Shown piece after piece: positions 1-12,658 of a stretch of DNA of 64,000 bases. Both the position numbers and the translations under genes were made by a program. Source of the DNA: Chloroflexi bacterium GWB2_54_36 (lineage in GTDB: Bacteria > Chloroflexota > Anaerolineae > Anaerolineales > Anaerolineaceae); contig MGMG01000081.1 of NCBI GenBank assembly GCA_001796355.1, forward strand, positions 196 through 64,195, in the 5' to 3' direction. The stretch's first letter is position 1. Every line of letters begins with the position of its first letter. The notes under the pieces were generated by a model that was not told where the DNA came from, searched no databases, and worked only from the letters and a program-made list of their open reading frames with translations.

Positions 1-1
1 C

Positions 2-469
2 CATCGGGACGCAGTAAAACTCATCGGCGTCCGGGTTGGTTTCGGGTGTGCAAAATTCTGGACGGTCATCCGATATGGCTACGCGAAATTTCAATGTTTT
101 TGCCAGCGTCGCAACTGCTTTTCCAACATGCCCGCCCCCAATCACCACGATCAATGGGCTCGGAATTATCGGTTCCACAAACACCTCCATCGTTCCACCG
201 CATACCCCGGCGTCGCCAGATTTTGGATCTACCATGCGGTATTTCAACAACCGGGTTTTCCCATCCACTAATGATTCAGCGGCTTCCTTCTTGATTCGGT
301 TCTCGACTTCTCCGCCACCAACCGTGCCGATAAAGCTGCCATCCTCATAGACCAGCATCTTGCTGCCTTCGTGGCGCGGCGTGGATCCCTGGGTGTCGAT
401 TATGGTACACAACGCGCCTGCCCGATGGTCGGTTTCCAACTCAAGAATCGCTTGATAAATATTCACCAT
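2..469 (-). CDS. xdhC: XdhC/CoxI-family molybdoenzyme maturation factor; partial, runs off the left edge
   Basis: Not in the ORF track. Manual translation from ATG at 469 gives MVNIYQAILELETDHRAGALCTIIDTQGSTPRHEGSKMLVYEDGSFIGTVGGGEVE...GVCGGTMEVFVEP...LIVVIGGGHVGKAVATLAKTLKFRVAISDDRPEF, with the XdhC motifs GSTPR, GTVGGG, CGG and GxGHV. Confidence 0.93.
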   Translation of the reverse strand, partial: MVNIYQAILELETDHRAGALCTIIDTQGSTPRHEGSKMLVYEDGSFIGTVGGGEVENRIKKEAAESLVDGKTRLLKYRMVDPKSGDAGVCGGTMEVFVEPIIPSPLIVVIGGGHVGKAVATLAKTLKFRVAISDDRPEFCTPETNPDADEFYCVPM

Positions 470-491
470 GCTGCGATACCTCTTTCCACAA

Positions 492-3400
492 TTAAGGGGT
501 GACTTTTTTCAATGCTCGCCAGATTCTTTCCGGCGTGGCGGGAATTTCAAGAACCGCAGCACCGCAGGCGTCCAAAATGGCGTTTCCCACGGCTGGCGCT
601 ACGCCATCCATGGGGATTTCAGCCACGGCCTTAACGCCGAATGGGTGCGAAGGTTCGTAGGTCTGCACAAAAATGGTCTCGAGCGCCGGCATTTCGTCCG
701 CCCGGAAGATATGGTAATCATCCAGGTCAGTCTCACGCGCCCGACCTTTTTCATCATACACCATTTCCTCGCACACCGCATAACCCAACGCCTGGGTCAT
801 CCCGCCCTCGATCTGACCGGAAGCGGTGATTGGATTAACGATGATGCCGGAATCAACTGCCATTACCAACCGGTCCACCACAACTTTGCCGGTCTCCACA
901 TCGACTGTGACTTCGGCAAACTGGGCGGCGAAGGGCGGCGGGGATACCGGCGAATAGTACGATCCGGTGCCCATAATTTGTTCCTGGTCGTCGTGGTGCA
1001 GCGCATTCAAAGCGATCTCTTGCATGGTTACTGCGCGGCCATCACGCGTACTAGCGTGTTTGTTACCCAGCACAATGTCGTCTTCCGTTACTTCTAGCCC
1101 TTTAGCCTGCTTATTAATCATCCTGGCTGCGCGGATTTTGATGCGTTCTGCTGCCATTTCAGCTGCTAGAGCCACCGCAGCGCCGGAGATATACGTAGTA
1201 CTGGAGGCATATGCCCCCTTATCGAAGGGGGTGAAGTCGGTATCCGAGGAATACACCAGAATGTCATCCACCGGAACGCCAAGCACCTCGGCTGCCATTT
1301 GCGCCAGAACCGTATCCGAACCGGTGCCAAGGTCGGTAGCGCCGACCAACAGGTTGAACGACCCATCATCATTCATTTTTATGCTAGCGCCGCCCATATC
1401 CAGATATGGGATAGCTGTCCCTTGCATGACGGTTGCCACACCGATTCCACGGCGCAAGTGCGGCTTGCCAGGTACAGCATGCCATTCAACGTTAGGATAT
1501 TTTTGATCCCAGCCAATGGCGGCTTTGGCTTGCCGGACGCACTCTTCCAGCCCGACGGTATGCACAATTTCCGGACGCGGTTCGCGGCCCTCACTCCAGG
1601 CAGTGCTAAAAGGATGCAGCTCGCCCGAACGCAGCGTATTTTTCAACCGGAAATCGATCGAATCCAAGCCAAGATCGCGCACAATGTGCTCGACCTGTCG
1701 TTCGAGCGGCCAAAATCCCTGCGGAACCCCGTAACCGCGGAACGCGCCGGCTGGCGGTGTATTGGTATACACCACATCGGCATAGAAGCGGATATTGGGT
1801 GACAGGCGGTATGGTCCATCACCAACATACAGCGCCATGGCTTTATGACCGGTATTGCCGGTCACCGTCAGGGCATGGCAGCCATAGGCGCCGGTGTCAG
1901 AGAGTGCATACATGGCATTGGCCGTTATCGTGCCGTCCAGCTTCACGCCGGTTTTCATGCGAACGCGCATTGGGTGGCGCGACCGGGCAGCGATAAATTC
2001 TTCCTCGCGAGTTGTCTCATAGATGACCGGGCGACCGGTGGCGATCGTCAGGTGGGCTGCCACATCCTCAATCAAAACTTCCTGTTTGCCGCCAAAACCA
2101 CCGCCAATGCGCGGTTTAATCACGCGGATGCGTTTAACCGGCAAGCCCAATACCGGGGCAAGAATGCGACGGGCATGGAAAGGTACCTGGGTGCTGGTGC
2201 GAATGACCAACCGGTCATCCTCGTCCCAGTAGGTAACCACCACATGCGGTTCGATGTGCGCCTGCTGCACCTTGGGTACCGTGTATTCTTCCTCGTAAAT
2301 CCGGTCAGCCTCGGCAAATCCCTTTTCGATATCGCCGATATCGATGCGAATTTCAGCTGCAACGTTTTTGCCCGGATTGGAGTCAGCAAAATTGACAAAC
2401 TCCGGCTCATCATGGATGCGGATGGCTCCGGGCTGCATGGACTCCCGTGAATCCAGAATCGCGGGCAGCTCTTCATATTCGACTTTGATCAATCGCAGCG
2501 CCTGTTCCGCAATTTTGGCAGTCTCGGCCGCGACAAAGGCTACCCGGTCACCCACAAAACGCACTTTCCGGTCCAGTGAAAAGGCGTCCAGCGGCCCGGG
2601 AATAGGGTCAGATTGGCCGGCGGTCGAATAGATAACCCGCGGAATATCTTTGTAGCTCAAAACCGCCGCGACGCCTGACAGTGCGCGGGCATCGCTCAGG
2701 TCAATGGACTTGATCCAGGCGTGGGCTAACGGCGAATGCAGCACTTTCGCCACCAACATACCGCGCTTCTCGATATCCGCGGAGAAGGCAGGCTTGCCCT
2801 GCACCAATTTGACCGCATCCACTTTCACCTCGGGGCGGCCTATATGGGTGCGGGGTTTCTCCCTGGCATCCTGCGAAGTCCATATCTTTGGCATCACTTG
2901 GGTCTGGCTGGTGGTTTCAGCCAGGCCAGCGCTGCTTTCCGGTTGGTCGCCGGGGAGCGGCATGCTGACCGGCCAACCTTGTGTCTCGGTTTCGGGGGTA
3001 CCCATGATGGGCGGAATCATTTCACCGCGCATGACGGCAGCAGCGCGCAAAATGGCCTGGACTGGCTTTAAATAGCCTGTGCAACGGCAAAGAATGCCGG
3101 AAATGGCGGCTCGGACTTCGGCTTCAGTAGGATTCGGGTTTTTCTCGATCAGTGCGCGGGCTGCCAGTGCGAAAGCCGGCGTGCAGTAGCCGCATTGAAT
3201 GGCGCCACTCTCCACCAATGCCTGCTGGATCGGATGCAGTCCGGCTGTTTTTTTCCACCCCTGCTCAGGGTGCTCGCCCATGGCTTCAATCGTCTCCACC
3301 TGGTGACCGGTAACCTGAGCAGCCAGCAAGGTACACGAGTTGATGGGCTTCTTATCCAACAAAACTGTGCAGGCGCCGCATTCACCCTTGGCGCATCCGC

Positions 3401-3524
3401 CGGATTTGACGCCAAACATCCCTTGCCGGCGTAAAACGGAGAGCAGCGACTCGGATGGATCAGCTTCCCATTCGACCAGATCGCCGTTCAGCGTGAAGTA
3501 AATCATCATAGTTGCTTCTTTCAT
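492..3524 (-). CDS. Xanthine dehydrogenase-family molybdoenzyme with fused 2x[2Fe-2S] and Mo-cofactor domains (XdhD/YgfN-like)
   Basis: N-terminal Fe-S motifs GCAKGECGACTV, QCGYCTP and LCRCTGY. Mo-domain motifs STQVP, GGGFGGKQ, AFRGYG, GQIEGG and the catalytic-Glu region KAVAEIP. The start could also be the ATGATG at 3509/3506. Confidence 0.95.
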   Translation of the reverse strand: MKEATMMIYFTLNGDLVEWEADPSESLLSVLRRQGMFGVKSGGCAKGECGACTVLLDKKPINSCTLLAAQVTGHQVETIEAMGEHPEQGWKKTAGLHPIQQALVESGAIQCGYCTPAFALAARALIEKNPNPTEAEVRAAISGILCRCTGYLKPVQAILRAAAVMRGEMIPPIMGTPETETQGWPVSMPLPGDQPESSAGLAETTSQTQVMPKIWTSQDAREKPRTHIGRPEVKVDAVKLVQGKPAFSADIEKRGMLVAKVLHSPLAHAWIKSIDLSDARALSGVAAVLSYKDIPRVIYSTAGQSDPIPGPLDAFSLDRKVRFVGDRVAFVAAETAKIAEQALRLIKVEYEELPAILDSRESMQPGAIRIHDEPEFVNFADSNPGKNVAAEIRIDIGDIEKGFAEADRIYEEEYTVPKVQQAHIEPHVVVTYWDEDDRLVIRTSTQVPFHARRILAPVLGLPVKRIRVIKPRIGGGFGGKQEVLIEDVAAHLTIATGRPVIYETTREEEFIAARSRHPMRVRMKTGVKLDGTITANAMYALSDTGAYGCHALTVTGNTGHKAMALYVGDGPYRLSPNIRFYADVVYTNTPPAGAFRGYGVPQGFWPLERQVEHIVRDLGLDSIDFRLKNTLRSGELHPFSTAWSEGREPRPEIVHTVGLEECVRQAKAAIGWDQKYPNVEWHAVPGKPHLRRGIGVATVMQGTAIPYLDMGGASIKMNDDGSFNLLVGATDLGTGSDTVLAQMAAEVLGVPVDDILVYSSDTDFTPFDKGAYASSTTYISGAAVALAAEMAAERIKIRAARMINKQAKGLEVTEDDIVLGNKHASTRDGRAVTMQEIALNALHHDDQEQIMGTGSYYSPVSPPPFAAQFAEVTVDVETGKVVVDRLVMAVDSGIIVNPITASGQIEGGMTQALGYAVCEEMVYDEKGRARETDLDDYHIFRADEMPALETIFVQTYEPSHPFGVKAVAEIPMDGVAPAVGNAILDACGAAVLEIPATPERIWRALKKVTP

Positions 3525-3542
3525 TTTGGAAATAAATCTTGC

Positions 3543-4301
3543 CTAGACAGCCTGTTCCTGACCCATCAGGCGCAGCACCAACCGGGTTCCAGCCTCTTGC
3601 CGGTACTCGGCGCTGGCCCATGGATCGGCTGCCCGTGACAAAGCATCGCGTACTGCAGCTTCCGCTCCGCCTAGTTCAGGGGCATCCAGTGCCAGAATCG
3701 GCGCTGAACCGAATCCGCCCAGAGTAATCCGAGTGCGGCCAGACGGCCACTTTGCGACTGCTGTGCAGATGACAGGCAAATCATCCGGAGTGCGGCCAAT
3801 GGTATCAAATGCCAGACTGGCGTTGAGCGGAATCTGCACCCTGTTGATGAACAGAGCATTCACTGGCGGCTGGCGCAGCGCAAACCATTCACCCAGCGCT
3901 TGATCCTGATCTACCGGCAGCCAGTGAAGCAAAGCATCGAGCGCCAGCAGCGCAGCGCCGAAGGTCGATCGCCCTCCACTGGAGACCAATGTACCGGCGA
4001 CGGTCGCCTGCTGGCGTAAATTTTGATTTGCCTCCAACCGAATGGCTGATTTTAGGCCGGGTTGGAGATAGTCCAAATTGGCCAGTGACGCTAACGTGGT
4101 AGTTGCCCCAATTTGCAGGAATTGACCTTCCTGAGTCAGACTGTTTAGACCGAGCGATTGCAGATCGACAACAGAGATCGTTTGAGCAGACATTTGGCTC
4201 AAGGTCACTCCGCCGCCCAAGGGGCGGTATTCGCCGTCGGTGCGCGACAAAATTTCCAGCGCCTCTGCCAAATCTTTTGGCCGATAGTAGGCTTTAATCA
4301 T
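3543..4301 (-). CDS. FAD-binding subunit of a xanthine dehydrogenase-family enzyme (YgfM-like)
   Basis: YYRPKDLAEAL, PLGGGVTL, LQIGATTTL, NQNLRQQATVAGTL and C-terminal ASAEYR; lies next to the Mo subunit. Confidence 0.88.
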   Translation of the reverse strand: MIKAYYRPKDLAEALEILSRTDGEYRPLGGGVTLSQMSAQTISVVDLQSLGLNSLTQEGQFLQIGATTTLASLANLDYLQPGLKSAIRLEANQNLRQQATVAGTLVSSGGRSTFGAALLALDALLHWLPVDQDQALGEWFALRQPPVNALFINRVQIPLNASLAFDTIGRTPDDLPVICTAVAKWPSGRTRITLGGFGSAPILALDAPELGGAEAAVRDALSRAADPWASAEYRQEAGTRLVLRLMGQEQAV

Positions 4302-4777
4302 GCACCATCTCCATCAGGATACACTTTCCAATTTTCAGGGTCCAATTCCAGTTTTCCGGCCAGTTCGGTGGGCGCCTCCATCAGGAGTGCGCGCGCATTG
4401 GCCAAAACCTGCCCCTGCTCATTTTCTATTCTACTCGTTGCGTGAATAATTTCACCTTTATCTTCGGTCAATTCACCGATCACCTTTAGGGGTGTATTCA
4501 GCGGCACCGGTTTGCGGTAACGCACTTCCAGCGATGCAGTCACCACAATCCGCCGGGAACCATTGGCGCCCAGCACCGTGCGAGTGGCTGCCTCGTCGAG
4601 TACCGACGCCAGAATTCCTCCGTGAGCAATCCCGGGGAATCCCTGAAATTGCTCCGAAACCATCCAGTTGGCTTCGACACGCCCGGGAGCGGTATCGTAA
4701 AATTTTAGTTGTAATCCAAATTGATTATCGACCCCGCAAACGAAGCAATGCCGAGCGTTGGCTTGCTTCTGCCTCAT
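4298..4777 (-). CDS. PaaI-family hotdog-fold thioesterase
   Basis: [32 protein letters not shown] and [14 protein letters not shown]; 4-nt overlaps with both neighbours. Confidence 0.9.
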
Positions 4778-5772
4778 AGCTGCGCAAAAGTATCGATAAG
4801 CACCTTGATATCTCCACCGACCGGGTAGAGGATCGGGCAGGTGCAGCCATTTTTACGATATTCAGCCACTTTGGCGCGGGCTTCTTCGGGTGTACCAGAG
4901 GCAGTGATGCGGGTAATCAGGTCCTCTGGAACCAGATGTTTGGCTTTGTCGATCTGTTCCCTTGTAGCAGGCCAGCCCAAAATTGACTGAATTTGAGCAA
5001 CCACATCCATCGAAACTCCGGAGGCTTTTGCGATGTGCGGCTGCTGAGCCAGGTATTGGGTTAATAAGCCGCGGGTGGAGTCAATCGCTTTGTCATGGTC
5101 GAGATCCACCGAACACACGATCAACTGCGGGCGATCCATATCTTCAACCCGGCGGCCGGATTTTTTGGCGCCAGCATCCAGCAGTTCGAGCGCTTTACTG
5201 TTGTAGCTTGGCTCGACGCAATAATTCAATACCACGCCGTCAGCAATTTCGCCCGTCATTTCCATCATATTGTCGCCGGTAGCGCCAATCATGATCGGCA
5301 CATTGCGCGGTTCGCGCCGTCCATGGACTACATCCAACTCGATCCCAGATACATGGACGAACTCACCATCAAAGCTGACCCGTTCCATGTTCAGCAGGCG
5401 GCGCAGAACAGTTACCGTCTCGCGCATGGCGGTCAGCGGTTTTCTACGATCAATACCCACGTTTTTGGCTAGCGGATCCCACCAGGCGCCAATACCGCAA
5501 ATGATGCGGTCGGGAGCCAGATCGTCCAGGGTTAAAAAGGTCGAAGCCAGCAACCCGATATTACGCGTCCAGTTGTTGATGACGCCGGATCCGACTTTCA
5601 ACGTTTTCGTGACTGCAGCGTAAGCGGCCATAGGAACGATCGCATCACGGACCAGCCGGCTTTCGGCCTGCCAGACCGCTTCAAAACCGCGTTCCTCGGC
5701 ATAACGAACATAATCCAGTCCGTCGCGAAGATCGTGAGCATCCTGCAGATAAAGTGCTACTCTTTCACTCAT
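4774..5772 (-). CDS. LLM-class (luciferase-like) oxidoreductase, Mer-like, probably F420-dependent
   Basis: [25 protein letters not shown] (cf. Mer GPGVTNPYTR), GIGA, IMIGATG and [10 protein letters not shown]; clustered with cofC, cofE and npdG. Confidence 0.88.
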
Positions 5773-5831
5773 GGTACCTCCGGGTGTTGTGCGTTGTGGG
5801 TGGAATATTGGGTCGCAGTGGTAGAAAATGA

Positions 5832-6446
5832 CTAGGGATCTACCTGGAAAGCTTCAATTTGTCGAAGTAAAGCCAGGTCTTCTGGCTTATCGATATCAAG
5901 ACCCAAGGTAGTCAGATGACATAATTCGACCTGAATTCCCTTACTTTGAGCCTTCTTTAAATTCTTTTCATACGAGCCGGATCCGATGGTGCAATCGATG
6001 ATGTCCGGTGGATTCATATAGATGGCGTTGGTTCCGTCGTTATGCCGGTCGGGGGCGATAACTATAGCGGGTGTTCCTTTTACCAGCGACAGCATCTTCT
6101 CGATGTCCCGGCGGGAGACCAGCGGCAAATCGGCGGACAGGATTAACAAGCTCTCGGCATTGTACATCTTCGCCACAACCACTGCCCTCTTCAACGCGAT
6201 TTTCAGATCAGGCTGTCCGTCTTCCTGCAGCGTCCGTGCGCCATATTCCCGGGCCATTGCCAGGGCAGCCGAGTCGCTGCTGACAACCAGGATGTGGTCG
6301 ATTGCCGGGACTTCTTTCAAAGTCCTCAGGGTTTGACTCAACATGGTAAAGATCAGTAATGCTCTTTCATCTTCCGTTAATACGTCTGACAAACCAGATT
6401 TCGCTTTTCGCAGCGGTTTTACCGGTACAATCGCCCAAAGGCTCAT
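5832..6446 (-). CDS. cofC: 2-phospho-L-lactate/PEP guanylyltransferase (F420 biosynthesis)
   Basis: [37 protein letters not shown] and [11 protein letters not shown]. Confidence 0.92.
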
Positions 6447-6568
6447 TACGGTATCTACCCTCCAGGTTCAAACAGGATATTTATTTGTAAACAATGATCA
6501 GGTGTGGTCGGTCAGCAGATTTTTCCCTTTAATTATACCGTAAGGTTCAATCCGGCCGGTGATGGGGA

Positions 6569-7117
6569 TTATCCCTGGCTGCCGAGAAGTGGAAAACGAT
6601 ACAGGCCTCCATGGTCATCGCCGTGAAAATACCCGAGATAAATGTGATCCAGCTTGATTTCGATCCGCAGCGCTACGGTGCTGAGGTTGGCTACCAGACA
6701 GGCGATTGCTTCTTTCATCTCCGCTTTGCCGTACAGAATCGAGATGTGCGGTACCCATTCTTCCGGGGAAAAATAGCGGTTTACAGACCTGGCCAGAGGG
6801 GACAGCGCCTCCCAAAGGGTTGCGTTCAGGGCAGATAACGCCGGCGTACGGGTTACCGACAGATAAACGACCGGCTCAGCGCCGGTGAAGACGCCCACCC
6901 CATCGATGCGGGTAGTGACGGGAGCAAAGGTCCTGGCGATTGTGCGCATTCGCAGCTCAACTTCATCCAGGAAATAGGATTCGGCTCCCTGCCACGAGAG
7001 GTGCAATGGCCACTGGAGCGGGGCGGGGTCAGGTCCGCAACCTGCCAGAGCAACACCCCGAATTTGCTCCACTTCACGCGCTGATTCACTCGCCAGTTCA
7101 GTAATGATCGCGTACAA
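6569..7117 (-). CDS. 2H phosphoesterase (2'-5' RNA ligase superfamily)
   Basis: Two HxS motifs (PLHLSW, VPHISI) about 85 aa apart; TTG start preceded by GGAG. Confidence 0.78.
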   Translation of the reverse strand: MYAIITELASESAREVEQIRGVALAGCGPDPAPLQWPLHLSWQGAESYFLDEVELRMRTIARTFAPVTTRIDGVGVFTGAEPVVYLSVTRTPALSALNATLWEALSPLARSVNRYFSPEEWVPHISILYGKAEMKEAIACLVANLSTVALRIEIKLDHIYLGYFHGDDHGGLYRFPLLGSQG

Positions 7118-7128
7118 CGCAGGCTCCC

Positions 7129-7899
7129 TTAGCGGAACAGGTCCAATTCAAGCGGCCGGTGAAGCTCTTCAAACTTTCCCTCGCGCAAAGGGAATGGAAA
7201 GCCACGAACGTGCACCGCCGGAACGCGCTCATTCGCCTGTCCCATAACAAGAGACGCTGAACCAGCCAACTCGTCGGCCGCTGCTACTTGCGTCACCCGC
7301 AAGGTATACCCGAACATATCCTGGTGACCGCGTAAATCTACCAGGCCTGGCATTCCGGAGAAACCGATCGAGATGCCAACTGTGCCAATCCGCCAGGCGC
7401 GCCCATGCGAGTCGATGATCATGACCCCGATCTTGGCTCCTGTCTGCGTTTCAATCGAACTACGAATCCGGGCAGCCGATTCGTCAGCGTTTTTAGGCAG
7501 CAGCAAGACCCAATCATCCGGATTGCCGTAGCGTCCCTCGACGTTGGAATGGTCGATGCCCGCATTGGCGCACACAAACCCGGCCTTGTGCTCGACGATT
7601 ATGGTGCCCGGGCGGACGCGCAGCACGCTGCGGCTCTCCTGTAACATCAACTCTACCAGTCGGGGGTCTTTCTCGGCTGCAGCGCCCAGTTCGATTGCCC
7701 GCTGCGAGGGTTTAACATCATTCAGATTGACCAGGCGGTTTTCAGATTTGGACACGATCTTTTGCGCCAGCACCAGGATATCGCCATCCAATAGCTTCAG
7801 CCCGGCTGCTACCATTTTTTCGAGCAGGATGGCCGGCAGATCGTCACCTGGTTGGATGAGCGGGATTTCGGAAATTGGAGTAAAAATCAGGGGCTGCAT
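7129..7899 (-). CDS. cofE: Coenzyme F420-0:L-glutamate ligase (single domain)
   Basis: DGDILVLAQKIVSKSE, VCANAGIDHSN, IIDSHGRAWRIG and ADELAGSASLVMGQANE. Confidence 0.95.
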   Translation of the reverse strand: MQPLIFTPISEIPLIQPGDDLPAILLEKMVAAGLKLLDGDILVLAQKIVSKSENRLVNLNDVKPSQRAIELGAAAEKDPRLVELMLQESRSVLRVRPGTIIVEHKAGFVCANAGIDHSNVEGRYGNPDDWVLLLPKNADESAARIRSSIETQTGAKIGVMIIDSHGRAWRIGTVGISIGFSGMPGLVDLRGHQDMFGYTLRVTQVAAADELAGSASLVMGQANERVPAVHVRGFPFPLREGKFEELHRPLELDLFR

Positions 7900-7915
7900 A
7901 ACTTATGAAAGCGGA

Positions 7916-8593
7916 CTATGAACGCGGTAAACCGGTGATGCGAATGCCGGCGTCCTGGACGCCGAATTGTTTATTCAAACCGATCAGGACCGAGGTTAAC
8001 CCCTCCACCACGACAGAATTTTCAATCACGCCGCCGCTCCAACCAACCAGACCAGCGTCTTTAACCAGGCCGATAACTTTCTCTCGCGCCTCTTTCGGGC
8101 CGCAAACCAAAACATCACAGGCCACTTCATCGTCATGGATCAAGTGTTCATAGGAAATATTCTGGAACGCGGATACAACTTGCACATCATCACCTAATAT
8201 CGCTTGCGCTTGTTGTGCTGCACTGCCTTCCGGTGGCATCTGAACCTTGGCCACTTTGGGGGGAACCAGAGGTACGGTAACATCTATAAAGATTTTACCC
8301 CGTACATAGGGTTTTAAGAGCTCACACATATCTACATGCACGCCAAAGGGAACCGTCAAAACGACGATATCGGCGCGGATTGCGGCCTTTTCATTTTCCA
8401 GGCCAGATACCACATCCTGTTTAGCAAGCATTAAGTTCACATCACTGGCCGCTGCCTGAGCCTTTTCGGCCTGGCGCGAACCGATGATGATCGTATGTCC
8501 GGCTTTTGCCCAGCGGTATGCCAGCCCTTTACCTTCTTTTCCAGTACCGCCAATAATTCCAATCGTGTATCTTTCTGCGCCAGTGTCAGTCAT
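7916..8593 (-). CDS. npdG: NADPH-dependent F420 reductase (Fno/NpdG)
   Basis: Rossmann IGIIGGTGKEGKGLA, NADP-type GSR, VVSAFQNIS and VEGLTSVLIGLN. Confidence 0.92.
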   Translation of the reverse strand: MTDTGAERYTIGIIGGTGKEGKGLAYRWAKAGHTIIIGSRQAEKAQAAASDVNLMLAKQDVVSGLENEKAAIRADIVVLTVPFGVHVDMCELLKPYVRGKIFIDVTVPLVPPKVAKVQMPPEGSAAQQAQAILGDDVQVVSAFQNISYEHLIHDDEVACDVLVCGPKEAREKVIGLVKDAGLVGWSGGVIENSVVVEGLTSVLIGLNKQFGVQDAGIRITGLPRS

Positions 8594-8611
8594 TATGGGT
8601 TCTCCCTGAGG

Positions 8612-9961
8612 TTAATGGTTTTGAGCGATCGTGTTATACCGTTTCCACGTTTCTTTGGAAAGCCGGCGCGCCTCGTACGTGATTTTTTCTTCGTCCAAAG
8701 TGAGCAACTGCCGGTCGCGCATGAGCACTTTCCCGCCAACCATGGTGGTAGTCACCATGCTCTCATGAAAGCCAAAAATGATATGCCACGGCAAGTTGCC
8801 AGCGTCTAGTTCGGTAAAGGGGTGATAGTCAACAAAAATCAGGTCCGCTTCCGCCCCTGGCGCCAGAACACCGATAGGCCCGACGCCAAATTGCTGCTCT
8901 GCCAACAGTGCGTTGTTGTAAACTGCCATCTGGACCACATCGGTGCCAGACATGCGACGCGGGTCATGGTTCCATAGTTTATGCGCCAGGTAAGCGGTCT
9001 TCCATTCCTGCCACATTTGATTGGAGAAACCGTCATTCCCCAGACAAACCTTGATGCCCGCTCGCATCATGGCTTCCGGTTGAGACATGCCAACTGCGTT
9101 ATTCATGTTAGACCGCGGTTGATGGGTAACCCAGGTCTGACTGGCTGCCAGCAGTTCGATTTCACGGACATCGACGTGCACGGCGTGCACCGCTATCGAG
9201 CGCGGACCAAGAATACCATGCCGCTCCAGCCGGTCCACCACCCGCTCACCGCATTTTTGCAAGCTGTCGTATTCATCCACCGGATGTTCGGCGACATGGA
9301 CATGGAAACCGACATCATCCGGGCAAGCCACCCGGCAGGCCTCAAGGGTTTTTTCCGACAGGGTCAAGCTGGCATGCAGGCCAAAAGTAGCTGCCAGCTT
9401 GCCGCTTTTATCCGCCTTTACGGCGTTGATAAAGCGGACATTCTCGGCGATGCCATCTTTTGTGCCCTGCTCCCCCTCGCGATCGGTGACTTCATAGCAG
9501 AGCGAGGTGCGAACCCCGGCTTCCTGGACTGCCAGCGCTACTTCCGTCAGTGAACCACTGATTGCATTAGGCGAAGCATGGTGGTCTATTAGCGTGGTTG
9601 TGCCGTGTTTAACCGCATCGATCAGACATACCAGCGCCGAGTAGCGTACATCCTCCAGCGTGAGGGCTTTATCCAATGACCACCATAATTTTCCCAGAAT
9701 TTCAGGAAAATCTTTGGGCGCCGGTCCCGGGATTCCCATACCCCGCGAGAATGCTCCATAGAAATGAGTGTGCGCGCAGATATTCCCAGGCATGATATAT
9801 TGGCTATGCGCATCCAGACGTTCTTCCTGCGGGTATTTTTCGAGGATTTCGGTTTGTCTGGCAATTTCAACGATCTTGCTTTCTACAATTCGCAGCGCGT
9901 ACCCTTCAAGAATGCGATTAGGTTGTTCCCAGGTGATAATCTTTCCGTTGGTAAGTATCAT
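8612..9961 (-). CDS. ssnA: SsnA-like metal-dependent amidohydrolase
   Basis: MPGNICAHTHFYG, LWWSLDKAL, GTTTLIDHHASP, FGLHASLTL, HVHVAE, HQPRSNMNNAVG and LGNDG; RBS GGAGGG upstream. Confidence 0.88.
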   Translation of the reverse strand: MILTNGKIITWEQPNRILEGYALRIVESKIVEIARQTEILEKYPQEERLDAHSQYIMPGNICAHTHFYGAFSRGMGIPGPAPKDFPEILGKLWWSLDKALTLEDVRYSALVCLIDAVKHGTTTLIDHHASPNAISGSLTEVALAVQEAGVRTSLCYEVTDREGEQGTKDGIAENVRFINAVKADKSGKLAATFGLHASLTLSEKTLEACRVACPDDVGFHVHVAEHPVDEYDSLQKCGERVVDRLERHGILGPRSIAVHAVHVDVREIELLAASQTWVTHQPRSNMNNAVGMSQPEAMMRAGIKVCLGNDGFSNQMWQEWKTAYLAHKLWNHDPRRMSGTDVVQMAVYNNALLAEQQFGVGPIGVLAPGAEADLIFVDYHPFTELDAGNLPWHIIFGFHESMVTTTMVGGKVLMRDRQLLTLDEEKITYEARRLSKETWKRYNTIAQNH

Positions 9962-9999
9962 GGCTGCCCTCCAGAAATGATGGCCAGTATTTTAACGAC

Positions 10000-10027
10000 A
10001 CAAAACCGAAAGGTAAACCTTTCGGTT
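10000..10027 (-). terminator. Terminator-like hairpin in the ssnA leader
   Basis: Perfect 10-bp stem AACCGAAAGG-TTTA-CCTTTCGGTT running into TTGTGT on the minus strand, about 40 nt upstream of the ssnA ATG. It could instead be an operator. Confidence 0.6.
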
Positions 10028-10102
10028 AAACGACCTGCTATTCGCATCAGGCGAACCAGGATAAATCGGAACAGTGAAAAACGAAGGGAATTTGATTGTC
10101 AT

Positions 10103-10200
10103 AGGATCGGTGGAGAAGGAAGGCGGCGCTTTTCGACGGGCACTTCTCATCCGGCCCGACGCCAGCCAAGCAAGTGCTTGAACTGACCACCGAACCCTGC
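10103..10200 (-). ncRNA. Candidate structured leader RNA (riboswitch-like, no family recognised)
   Basis: Closing stem AGGGUUCGGUGG/CCACCGAUCCU, hairpin CAAGC-ACUU-GCUUG, nested stems GGCGU/GCGCC and CGGGC/GCCCG, and complementary loops ACUU/AAGU. G-U pairs occur only in the minus-strand reading. Confidence 0.4.
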
Positions 10201-10204
10201 ATAT

Positions 10205-10231
10205 ATTTTAGCATAAAGCGGTTGTTGTCAA
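10205..10231 (-). promoter_or_regulatory. Putative sigma70-type promoter of the ssnA-F420-xdh operon
   Basis: Minus strand TTGACA-N15-TAAAAT with extended -10 TG; predicted start near 10200. Confidence 0.55.
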
Positions 10232-10250
10232 CAGAATTAAACCAGTCAAC

Positions 10251-10279
10251 TGGAAAACTATTCCGAATGAGCATATAAT
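10251..10279 (+). promoter_or_regulatory. Putative promoter of the M20 peptidase gene
   Basis: TGGAAA-N17-TATAAT, about 30 nt before ATG 10311. Confidence 0.45.
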
Positions 10280-10310
10280 CATCCCAAATACAGCATTCTG
10301 GAGAGAACCC

Positions 10311-11687
10311 ATGGATCCGCGCACCAAAGCGCTCGAATATGCCGTTTCGCATCAGGCTGAATTCCTCGAACAACTCAAAGATTTGATCCGCATGCCGTCG
10401 ATTTCGACGGCGCCCGAAAATAACGGGGATGTGCAAAAAACTGCGGAGTGGCTGGCGCACAAGCTGACCCGGATTGGCATGAAGAATGTGCAAATCCTGC
10501 CAACCGGCGGGCACCCGGTGGTTTACGGCGAATGCATTTGCGCTCGGGAAAAAGCCCCGACTGTTTTGGTTTATGGACATTACGATGTGCAGCCGGCCGA
10601 TCCGCTGGAGTTATGGACAGCTGAACCTTTTACTCCCGAACAGCGCGGTGAAAACCTGTACGCCCGCGGCGCATCTGACATGAAGGGTCAGGTGATGGCC
10701 AGCATTGATGCAGTCGAAGCGATTATGATGTCAGGCGAACCGCCTGTTAATATCAAATTCATCCTGGAAGGCGAAGAAGAAATTGGCTCGCCTAACCTGG
10801 TCCCATTTATTAAGGCGCACCGAGAACTGCTCTCCTGCGATGTGGCGCTCAACCCGGACTGCGGCATGATCGGCGCGGATGCGCCAACCATTACTTACGC
10901 GCTGCGCGGTTTGGCTTATTTCGAGCTGCGTCTTTACGGCCCGGAGCACGACCTGCATTCAGGGCTTTACGGCGGGGCAGTCCATAATCCAGCGATTGTG
11001 CTGGCTGAATTGATCGCCGGTATGCATGATGCAGATGGTCGCATTACCTTACCCGGATTCTACGACCGCGTGCGGTCTCTGGACGCCGAAGAGCGCGCTC
11101 AGCTCGCCCGATTACCTTTATCTGAAGCTCACTTCCTTGCCATGACCGGCGTTTCAGCGCTTTTTGGCGAAAAAGGGTACACCCCGGTCGAGCAGGTTGG
11201 AGCCCGTCCCACGCTGGATGTAAACGGCTTATACTCAGGTTTCATTGGCGCCGGATCAAAAACAGTTCTGCCAGCTTATGCCATGGCGAAGATCTCCATG
11301 CGTCTGGTCCCTGACCAGGACCCCGCCGAAGTCCAGGATCAGTTGATCGCGTACCTGAACGCCAAAGCTCCCAAGACAGTACGCTGGGAATTGACTAACC
11401 ACTCCTCCAGTAAAGCCTCCATATCCGATATTCACCACCCGGCCGTTAAGTCACTGGTGGATGGGTTGGCAGCAGCCTGGAAAACCGCGCCACTTTACAA
11501 GCGTGAAGGCGGCAGCGTGCCGATCGTTGGTGATATGCAGCGAATTCTAGGCGTGGAGTCCGTTTTAACCGGTTTTGGACTGTCGGACGATAATATTCAC
11601 GCTCCGAATGAAAAACTGCACCTGCCGACCTGGTATAAAGGCATCCAATCGTTGATTCATTTCTTCTACAACTACGGGCAAGCTTAA
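10311..11687 (+). CDS. M20-family dipeptidase
   Basis: YGHYDVQP, RGASDMKGQ, EGEEEIGS, DLHSG, EGGSVP and NIHAPNE. Confidence 0.92.
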   Translation: MDPRTKALEYAVSHQAEFLEQLKDLIRMPSISTAPENNGDVQKTAEWLAHKLTRIGMKNVQILPTGGHPVVYGECICAREKAPTVLVYGHYDVQPADPLELWTAEPFTPEQRGENLYARGASDMKGQVMASIDAVEAIMMSGEPPVNIKFILEGEEEIGSPNLVPFIKAHRELLSCDVALNPDCGMIGADAPTITYALRGLAYFELRLYGPEHDLHSGLYGGAVHNPAIVLAELIAGMHDADGRITLPGFYDRVRSLDAEERAQLARLPLSEAHFLAMTGVSALFGEKGYTPVEQVGARPTLDVNGLYSGFIGAGSKTVLPAYAMAKISMRLVPDQDPAEVQDQLIAYLNAKAPKTVRWELTNHSSSKASISDIHHPAVKSLVDGLAAAWKTAPLYKREGGSVPIVGDMQRILGVESVLTGFGLSDDNIHAPNEKLHLPTWYKGIQSLIHFFYNYGQA

Positions 11688-11710
11688 CGGTGGAAAGACT
11701 AGGAAGGTAA

Positions 11711-12658
11711 ATGAGCACTGATAAACTAAAAATGCCGTCCTACGGCGGCCAGGCCTTGATCGAAGGCGTGCTGATGCGCGGCAAGTTCGGCGTGGCAGCC
11801 GCATTCCGCACCCCGGACGGCACGATTGTCATTGACAGAGAACCGCTGACCGGTATCTACAACAGCAAACTCACGCGCATCCCATTTTTGCGCGGACTGG
11901 TGCTGCTGTGGGATTCGCTTGGGCTGGGCACCCGTTTCCTGACCCGGTCAGCCAACTTGCAGGGCGGCGAAGACGAAAAAATCGAGGGGCCAATGTTGTA
12001 CCTGACGCTGGCAGGATCCCTGTTGATCGCTGTGCTACTATTTTTTGTCGGGCCGGCCGCGTTGGGAAAACTCATTCAAAACTGGACCGGTATCTCCACT
12101 TTTGCCATGAATGTGCTCGAAGGTCTGATCCGGCTGGCGGGGATTGTGCTCTACATCTGGGCGATCGGCAAGATGAAAGATATCGACCGGGTGTTTGCCT
12201 ATCACGGCGCCGAACATAAGACAATCAATGCCTTCGAGGCGGGCGCAGAACTGACTCCGGTCGAAGTCAAGAAGTTCCCCCTGGAACATCCCCGCTGTGG
12301 CACCTCGTTCCTGTTATCGCTGGTGGTCATTTCCATCGTAGTCTTTGCCATTATCGGCTCGCTGCCTACCCTCTGGCTGCTGTTGAGCCGGATTATCTTG
12401 ATTCCAGTTTTGGCGATGCTGGCGTATGAATATATCCGCTTCACCGCCAATCACATGGATAACTGGCTCATCCGTTGGATGATTAAACCCAACCTGGCGT
12501 TGCAGCGTCTCACGACCCGTGAACCATCGCTTGATATCCTGGAAGTTAGCATCGCATCTTTTAATGCGATGATGGCGCAGGAAGCTGAGCTTTGTGGCAT
12601 CCCACAGAAAATCACCAGCCTGGTTGAACCGCAACCTGTCGCGGCAATCGAACAATAA
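11711..12658 (+). CDS. DUF1385 membrane protein (putative metalloprotease)
   Basis: YGGQALIEGVLMRG, IPFLRG, YHGAEHK, HPRCGTSF and LQRLTTREP. Confidence 0.92.
   Translation: MSTDKLKMPSYGGQALIEGVLMRGKFGVAAAFRTPDGTIVIDREPLTGIYNSKLTRIPFLRGLVLLWDSLGLGTRFLTRSANLQGGEDEKIEGPMLYLTLAGSLLIAVLLFFVGPAALGKLIQNWTGISTFAMNVLEGLIRLAGIVLYIWAIGKMKDIDRVFAYHGAEHKTINAFEAGAELTPVEVKKFPLEHPRCGTSFLLSLVVISIVVFAIIGSLPTLWLLLSRIILIPVLAMLAYEYIRFTANHMDNWLIRWMIKPNLALQRLTTREPSLDILEVSIASFNAMMAQEAELCGIPQKITSLVEPQPVAAIEQ

Follow-up and report, generated by a model that had tools for sequence, protein, structure and literature searches.

A candidate F420-linked operon for reductive urate degradation in an Anaerolineae bacterium, with a predicted F420-type enzyme in the place of YgfK

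The stretch of DNA analysed here (64,000 nucleotides of contig MGMG01000081.1 of Chloroflexi bacterium GWB2_54_36, referred to below as the window) begins with a run of genes in which relatives of the Escherichia coli genes ssnA, ygfM and xdhD are interleaved with genes of coenzyme F420, and which is a candidate operon for reductive urate degradation. The genome, 2.9 Mb in size and 94.5% complete, is that of a Bellilinea-like Anaerolineae bacterium. A listing of the open reading frames in the first 10 kb showed ten of them at window positions 2–9961, all on the minus strand, in the 5′ to 3′ order ssnA, fno (npdG), cofE, a 2H phosphoesterase-superfamily gene, cofC, a gene for a Mer-like luciferase-like oxidoreductase (LLM), a hotdog-fold gene, a ygfM-like gene, an xdhD-like gene and xdhC (Table 1). 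From ssnA onwards the genes are separated by gaps of 18, 16, 11, 122 and 59 nt, followed by two 4-nt overlaps and by gaps of 18 and 22 nt, and no convincing terminator on the minus strand was detected between the genes by a simple scan. Genes were assigned using Pfam and NCBIfam profile searches, with the scores compared with the family cut-offs. SsnA, Fno, CofE and CofC each score above their NCBIfam equivalog cut-off, and the top genomic match of E. coli SsnA is the product of the ssnA gene in the window. An earlier reading of the window (the original prediction) had described ten co-oriented genes; their order and spacing match the listing exactly, and the assignments were upheld by the Pfam and NCBIfam searches.

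The end of the contig is only 195 nt from the start of the window and hence the gene run is cut at xdhC. A 1-Mb contig from a Chloroflexi metagenome-assembled genome (MAG), L026, with 90% DNA identity, aligns unbroken from the left end of the window into contig C15 of the present genome, with approximately 450 nt unassembled at the join. Past xdhC, the L026 orthologue of which is full length (263 aa), the joined operon contains a second, PucD-like xanthine dehydrogenase (XDH), made up of a fused FAD/Fe-S subunit, a 121-aa protein and a 746-aa molybdenum subunit, together with YqeB, a YqeC-MocA fusion and a second MocA-like gene. On C15, YqeB (TIGR03309, 310 against a cut-off of 220) and the YqeC part of the fusion (TIGR03172, 132 against 73) both score above their family cut-offs. 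All ten window genes encode proteins with 90–99% identity to their L026 counterparts which, given the 90% DNA identity of this relative, indicates that they are under purifying selection. Contig C80, which carries the lower-pathway genes described below, was ruled out as the neighbour of the window, since L026 joins the window to C15 instead.

Table 1. Positions of the genes and RNA elements at the left end of the window, with the profile matches or readings behind each assignment.
Feature	Window position	Strand	Basis or remark
xdhC (molybdenum-cofactor insertion chaperone), N-terminal 156 aa	2..469	-	PF02625 + PF13478; gene runs off window and contig end
XdhD-like fused 2Fe-2S/molybdopterin subunit, 1010 aa	492..3524	-	Fer2, Fer2_2, Ald_Xan_dh_C, MoCoBD_1, MoCoBD_2
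YgfM-like short FAD subunit, 252 aa	3543..4301	-	PF00941; TIGR03312 top NCBIfam match
Hotdog-fold (4HBT/PaaI-like) protein	4298..4777	-	PF03061; 4-nt overlap with each neighbour
Mer-like F420-type LLM, 332 aa, proposed F420H2:2,8-dioxopurine reductase	4774..5772	-	PF00296
cofC (2-phospho-L-lactate/phosphoenolpyruvate guanylyltransferase)	5832..6446	-	TIGR03552, 153 bits vs cut-off 105
2H phosphoesterase-superfamily protein	6569..7117	-	PF13563
cofE (F420-0:gamma-glutamyl ligase)	7129..7899	-	TIGR01916, 258 bits vs cut-off 181
fno/npdG (NADPH-dependent F420 reductase)	7916..8593	-	TIGR01915, 197 bits vs cut-off 150
ssnA (amidohydrolase opening reduced purine ring)	8612..9961	-	NF005540 520 vs 444; TIGR03314 483 vs 455
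Terminator-like hairpin with U run, between leader RNA and ssnA start	10001..10027	-	read from sequence
Three-way-junction leader RNA, riboswitch candidate	10103..10200	-	covariance model R1
M20 dipeptidase-like metallohydrolase	10311..11687	+	PF01546; NF006053 519 bits vs cut-off 441

The closest known system is the E. coli cluster described by Li et al. (2025; PMC12507026), with the parts ygeW-ygeX-ygeY-hyuA-yqeA and yqeB-yqeC-mocA-ygfK-ssnA-ygfM-xdhD; the second of these regions has a counterpart here for every gene except ygfK. In E. coli, XdhD/YgfM convert urate to 2,8-dioxopurine, and YgfK, a large NAD(P)H/FAD/Fe-S/FMN enzyme, reduces 2,8-dioxopurine only when coupled to SsnA (PMC12507026). 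SsnA, a YgfM-like protein, an XdhD-like protein with the Glu606 loop, YqeB, YqeC, MocA, HyuA, YgeY and carbamate kinase are common to both organisms, and in both ssnA stands ahead of ygfM-xdhD. Unlike in E. coli, however, a 5-kb block (fno, cofE, 2H, cofC, LLM and hotdog) lies here between ssnA and ygfM, the upper and lower halves of the pathway are at separate loci, XdhC and the second XDH are part of the operon, YgfK is lacking, YgeX has no orthologue (ThrC-like and CysK-like proteins being present instead) and the carbamoyltransferase resembles ornithine carbamoyltransferase (OTC). A different solution is found in Clostridioides difficile, where UacX, a PydA-like, ferredoxin-linked protein, replaces YgfK, so that the ring-reduction step is one that non-orthologous reductases fill (PMC12507026). 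UacX is a PF01180 FMN/Fe-S enzyme, whereas the candidate here is an Fe-S-free, F420-type TIM-barrel LLM with an NADPH-linked recharger.

The fused Fe-S/molybdenum subunit shares 36% identity with E. coli XdhD over its full length and is the top match of XdhD in the genome; likewise, the sole genomic match of E. coli YgfM is the 252-aa FAD subunit. The XdhD-specific loop is present, with a glutamate aligned to E606 of XdhD (IGEGK in XdhD, WSEGRE here), the residue that was singled out by Li et al. (PMC12507026). This glutamate is kept in 12 orthologues of the fused subunit, and the loop is lacking from E. coli XdhA and from the second XDH of the operon. Both subunits remain below the family cut-offs (681 against 1102 with TIGR03313 for the fused subunit, 68 against 241 with TIGR03312 for the YgfM-like subunit), and the fused subunit scores approximately equally on the XdhA- and XdhD-type models, below the cut-off in both cases.

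The original prediction had noted that no YgfK-like protein occurs at the locus, and this holds for the whole genome as well: E. coli YgfK gave no match in it (tblastn, E<1e-4), nor did the YgfK hidden Markov model TIGR03315 at 1e-10. No UacX candidate was found in the genome either, its single PF01180 match, on contig C40, being weak and distant. The lower pathway, in contrast to ygfK, was found as a block on one strand of contig C80. In this block, YgeY (TIGR03526, 482 against a cut-off of 321), carbamate kinase (431 against 266) and HyuA (TIGR02033, 533 bits against 393) score above their family cut-offs; the other members are an 8-oxoguanine/guanine-deaminase-like protein, an adenine deaminase, a GntR regulator, a carbamoyltransferase of the OTC/YgeW type, a nucleoside ABC importer of the PnrA/BMP type, and ThrC-like and CysK-like pyridoxal phosphate (PLP) enzymes. 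Hence, among the genes for which a genome-wide search had been suggested, hyuA, ygeY and an OTC-like relative of ygeW are present, but ygeX is not; a yqeA homologue is present as well. The CysK-like/ThrC-like PLP genes lie at C80 positions 3972–5438 and 6452–7699 (locus L003). In distant Chloroflexota clusters (G225, G289 and G129) the ThrC-like and CysK-like genes are syntenic with ssnA and ygeY, which makes the two enzymes candidates to stand in, as non-orthologues, for the diaminopropionate ammonia-lyase YgeX. The ygeY locus is 0.7–1.2 Mb from ssnA in closed relatives, and G234, a 99%-complete genome of the same genus, has no YgeY orthologue at E≤1e-60 despite a full ssnA-F420-xdhD operon that includes cofD.

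The LLM matches PF00296 with 211 bits. Its top 15 NCBIfam matches are F420-dependent LLM classes, Mer among the best of them, all under their cut-offs, with FMN-dependent classes scoring 35 bits at most. The closest solved proteins by sequence are the Mer structures 8QPL and 1Z69 (E values of about 1e-37 to 1e-47), followed by FGD and Adf. An AlphaFold2 model (pLDDT 87, pTM 0.87) gave a TM-score of 0.87 to Mer, and its first 26 PDB fold matches were all F420-dependent LLMs (Mer, FGD and Adf). With Mer (8QPL, 1Z69) the protein shares the (β/α)8 fold, approximately 28% identity in the fold alignment and a Gly-Val motif: G61-V62 of jMer, the cis-peptide of which backs F420 (PMC11094777), aligns to the invariant G63-V64 within a GSGVxNN motif, just after model strand 59–62. 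In contrast, Asp96 of the jMer pterin site aligns to Trp98 of an invariant GAWW motif (GAWWD). HMMER left the first 18 residues of the LLM unaligned to Mer; by a constant offset and the position of model strand β1, the catalytic Glu6 of Mer probably corresponds to the invariant Tyr8. Nor does the protein reach the equivalog cut-offs for Mer (170 against 276 with NF002619, 167 against 349 with TIGR03555). Both fold and cofactor site thus resemble those of F420-dependent enzymes, but the substrate site differs from that of Mer. In the proposed activity the LLM would, like Mer, deliver a hydride to a carbon of the C=N type in a fused N-heterocycle, although the organism has no methanopterin context. 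There is no second LLM paralogue in the genome.

The supply of F420 is represented by genes for the tail of the cofactor. CofD is absent from the genome, in which the CofD proteins of relatives gave no tblastn match and the only PF01933 protein is YvcK (TIGR01826, 361 bits). Most relatives have a true CofD (TIGR01819, 302 against a cut-off of 257) between cofE and cofC, often together with an FbiB-C-like nitroreductase; five more operon-bearing genomes lack CofD (G301, G302, G303, G305 and G306). With positive controls, the FO synthase components CofH (TIGR03551) and CofG (TIGR03550) were found in none of nine and none of ten related Anaerolineae genomes with the operon, respectively, three of them closed. 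As encoded, without CofD and FO synthase, F420 cannot be made from scratch. The genes that are present appear to be maintained, however, since CofC, CofE, Fno and the LLM share 93–99% protein identity with L026 despite 90% DNA identity. The simplest reading would be that FO or F420 is taken up from the community. Of the F420 toolkit proposed in the original prediction, the genes for Fno, the Mer-like LLM, CofC and CofE are therefore present, but the set for cofactor assembly is incomplete, CofD, CofG and CofH being missing.

In the present genome the 2H gene occupies the position between cofE and cofC at which relatives have cofD and/or the FbiB-C-like nitroreductase gene (80 loci). It mostly alternates with the nitroreductase gene, with 14 against 25 loci and four carrying both among the 58 loci with a readable cofE-cofC gap. 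The idea that 2H is a general replacement for CofD was rejected, as 12 loci have both and five have neither in the gap, including L028 of the CofD-less G306. Nor does F420 appear to be strictly dedicated to the purine pathway: there is one FDOR-A-like gene in this genome and there are eight in G043, with none in the closed genome G076. No FrhB-type protein scored above the family cut-off in six genomes searched, G076 among them.

Conservation of the linkage was examined in a scan with one genome per species, in which at least 587 species had a relative of the LLM; of these, the top 80 were examined, each from the Anaerolineales and at least 80% identical, and the counts over 61 given here refer to those species loci with at least 6.5 kb of upstream flank. 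SsnA was present in 57 of the 61 loci, as an orthologue in 53 and as a 43–44% identical paralogue in four, and Fno, CofE and CofC were each present in 58. SsnA is the first gene of a tightly spaced co-directional unit in 57/61 loci, and cofC is directly upstream of the LLM gene in 58/61. The hotdog, YgfM, XdhD and XdhC genes are found, co-directional and within 10 kb downstream of the LLM gene, in 17 to 26 of the 61 loci. Furthermore, the order SsnA-Fno-CofE-...-CofC-LLM on one strand was seen in 13 same-class genomes, from two families and beyond, and the operon also occurs in a MAG labelled Anaerolinea thermophila (L031). The linkage that the original prediction proposed to survey is therefore conserved.

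Several further observations were made at these loci. An orthologue of the hotdog gene is found 3′ of the LLM gene in 17/61 species loci and is absent from the same-genus genome G234; the E. coli cluster holds no counterpart of this gene. In several Anaerolineales, a second SsnA paralogue (43–44% identity) is located immediately 5′ of the LLM gene, beside the main ssnA or replacing it (L023 of G112, 7891–9186; L024 of G218, 9622–10932; also L082, L084, L086, L099 and L104). LLMs of the Anaerolineales type (83–84% identity) occur on contigs of MAGs labelled Syntrophothermus and Bacteroidota (L082, L090), labels that are probably binning errors. The M20 dipeptidase-like gene is divergent from ssnA. 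Among the 80 species loci, 24 have an orthologue upstream of ssnA, as does G234, and in most of them it is the immediate, divergent neighbour; its product may belong to the module and cleave a ureido or N-acyl intermediate.

Co-occurrence was determined in 301 Chloroflexota genomes, taking at least 62% identity as the threshold for an LLM orthologue; these genomes are related, so that the counts are not independent events. SsnA was found in 57 and the LLM orthologue in 46 genomes, and 45 of the 46 LLM genomes also have SsnA, the sole exception being a 58%-complete MAG. Likewise, in the three same-class genomes without SsnA the LLM is also absent. Among the eleven genomes with SsnA and no LLM are G002 and G015, the only two with YgfK above the family cut-off. 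Hence the anti-correlation with ygfK for which the original prediction proposed to look was observed, YgfK above the cut-off being confined to genomes with SsnA and without the LLM. Two members of family f28 are also relevant. G289, which has no LLM, carries directly between ssnA and ygeY a gene for a 682-aa protein in which a YgfK N-terminal domain precedes 4Fe-4S domains; G225 has the same type of cluster minus this gene, and an LLM (75% identity) elsewhere in the genome.

Upstream of ssnA, the minus strand carries, in 5′ to 3′ order, a conserved −10 box, a 98-nt RNA with a three-way junction (10103–10200) and the terminator hairpin (10027–10001), which is kept in four of six aligned leaders. 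Of 95 sources searched with covariance model R1, 14 contain the RNA. In every case it lies at the 5′ end of the operon, ahead of ssnA or of an XDH-like gene located upstream of ssnA; within this genome, R1 was run on the window, C80 and C15. Compensatory changes were seen in 15 of 26 pairs, and 91% of cells were paired compared with 27–51% in slid controls, with the alignment being fitted to the model and so favouring the structure. No Rfam family matched the leader or anything else in window positions 1–12000. Searching for the leader with a loose regular expression mostly produced chance matches across the genome, and the covariance model was used in its place. On sequence evidence, the leader is a candidate riboswitch of unassigned ligand, and its position lends indirect support to a single transcription unit.

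Taken as a whole, the operon probably encodes the upper half of reductive (2,8-dioxopurine, or ‘yanthine’) urate degradation in an Anaerolineae form, with the F420-type LLM in the place of YgfK, a reading drawn from sequence comparison. Purines would be converted to urate by the second, PucD-like XDH, together with the adenine and guanine-type deaminases from C80. The XdhD-like/YgfM-like molybdoenzyme, matured by XdhC, YqeB, YqeC-MocA and the second MocA-like protein, would then convert urate to 2,8-dioxopurine by removing its 6-oxo group. In the third step, the LLM is predicted to pass the hydride of F420H2 to the electron-poor C6=N1 of 2,8-dioxopurine, with Fno recharging F420H2 from NADPH. 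Hydrolytic ring opening by SsnA would yield ureidomethyl-hydantoin and pull the unfavourable reduction forward, and the C80 enzymes (HyuA, YgeY, the OTC/YgeW-like protein, carbamate kinase and the two PLP enzymes) would complete the route to pyruvate, NH3, CO2 and ATP. The presence of cofC and cofE in the operon, with cofD in most relatives, could be explained if tail assembly and the main consumer of F420 are regulated together; FO, the deazaflavin head group, would come from outside the cell or by an unknown route. The second, fourth and fifth steps are proposed from homology to characterised E. coli and C. difficile enzymes, while the reduction by the LLM is suggested by gene context, co-occurrence and fold.

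A number of observations weigh against this assignment. The substrate of the LLM is not deducible from its sequence, and the role of Glu606 of XdhD itself rests on a docking model (PMC12507026). The gene set for cofactor supply is incomplete, as neither CofD in this genome nor CofG and CofH in the 9–10 related genomes were found. In the lower pathway, the C80 carbamoyltransferase scores better as OTC, reaching 200 against a cut-off of 453 with the YgeW model, and a YgeX orthologue was not found in the genome, which offers only the ThrC-like and CysK-like PLP enzymes. Moreover, in other Chloroflexota classes the LLM gene is not beside ssnA: the distance is 120–178 kb in two genomes, and the remaining genomes have the two genes on different contigs. 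Within the order, the LLM is conserved at 78–87% identity compared with 55–74% for SsnA, and this higher conservation could reflect a broader or different role.

An alternative that we consider unlikely is that this is a catabolic operon for purines or N-heterocycles in which another enzyme reduces the ring before SsnA, and the LLM acts at a different step or on a different substrate. The LLM could then reduce xanthine or urate directly, or an intermediate further along the pathway; its substrate could also be a heterocycle other than a purine that the molybdoenzyme has hydroxylated. The replaced pterin-site residues (Asp96 by Trp98, and Glu6 probably by Tyr8) point to a new substrate without indicating which, and the near-equal scores of the molybdoenzyme on the XdhA- and XdhD-type models and the unassigned roles of the hotdog and 2H proteins also speak for this alternative. 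However, no other candidate reductase is present in the operon or linked to ssnA, the genome has neither YgfK nor UacX, and the alternation of YgfK and the LLM among genomes with SsnA fits one shared step. The score of SsnA above its equivalog cut-off and the XdhD-specific loop also favour the assignment to 2,8-dioxopurine. The F420 branch might alternatively be non-functional here or use another cofactor: the LLM may work with imported F420 or FO or with a flavin, or the pathway may be in decay. The absence of CofD here and from G301, G302, G303, G305 and G306, and of CofG and CofH from all genomes examined, points in this direction; we regard it as improbable, since the 93–99% protein identity of CofC, CofE, Fno and the LLM argues for function, and the fold and the nearest relatives of the LLM are of the F420 and not of the FMN type. 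Import of FO or F420 would in any case rescue the system, and so overlaps with the urate pathway proposed above rather than excluding it.

An even slimmer chance is given to the possibility that fno-cofE-(cofD)-cofC-LLM is the housekeeping F420 operon of the lineage, standing beside ssnA by chance, with an LLM of unrelated function. It is true that conservation is strongest for the F420 tail genes together with the LLM gene, the molybdoenzyme genes following directly in only about 24 of 61 loci, that in other classes the LLM gene is accompanied by an Fno-like gene but is remote from ssnA, and that some relatives have other users of F420 (up to eight FDOR-A paralogues, in G043). A chance neighbourhood, however, is difficult to reconcile with SsnA being present in 45 of 46 LLM genomes and opening the same unit in 57 of 61 loci, with the lack of the LLM in same-class genomes without SsnA, and with YgfK-type genes occurring exactly where the LLM is missing. 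Furthermore, the LLM is the sole one in the genome, and the closed genome G076 has neither FDOR-A nor FrhB.

The replacement of YgfK by an F420-type enzyme has already been predicted by Li et al. (2025; PMC12507026; bioRxiv 2025.05.19.654654), in Fig. 3c and the Discussion, in two sentences and the colouring of a network; besides this study, no paper in the literature collection searched joins F420 with ssnA. The comparative and fold results give good support to the F420H2-using purine route in place of YgfK put forward in the original prediction, but not to its description as unreported. New with respect to PMC12507026 are the extent of the operon, the interleaving of fno, cofC, cofD and cofE, the co-occurrence of SsnA and the LLM, the alternation of YgfK or the LLM, the tail-only F420 set (with no FO synthase, and no CofD in a subclade) and the leader RNA.

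It was not until 2025 that the reductive urate pathway was solved, and ring reduction is its chemically hard step. If the proposed assignment is true, a 332-aa, Fe-S-free F420H2 enzyme would carry out this step, providing a first link between F420 and purine catabolism and an answer to the question of what F420 does in Chloroflexi, which a 2021 review of F420 lists as open without mentioning purines (PMC8498797). Strains engineered to lower urate could also be given a simpler reductase, and Anaerolinea thermophila, of which cultured strains exist, is a possible test organism. Beyond this, we tentatively suggest, as a possibility that we hold to be less than even, that the operon-bearing Anaerolineae make no deazaflavin head group themselves and scavenge FO or F420, for example from methanogens, attach or extend and recharge the tail with the cofC, (cofD), cofE and fno genes of the operon and use the cofactor mainly to drive an Fe-S-free purine-ring reductase, the whole unit being controlled by a novel riboswitch class; the CofD-less subclade would then need an unknown transferase or direct import of F420. 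A system of this kind, if true, would be the first role of F420 in purine catabolism, would explain in physiological terms why anaerobic Chloroflexota have F420 and would imply a dependency on cofactor cross-feeding within methanogenic consortia.

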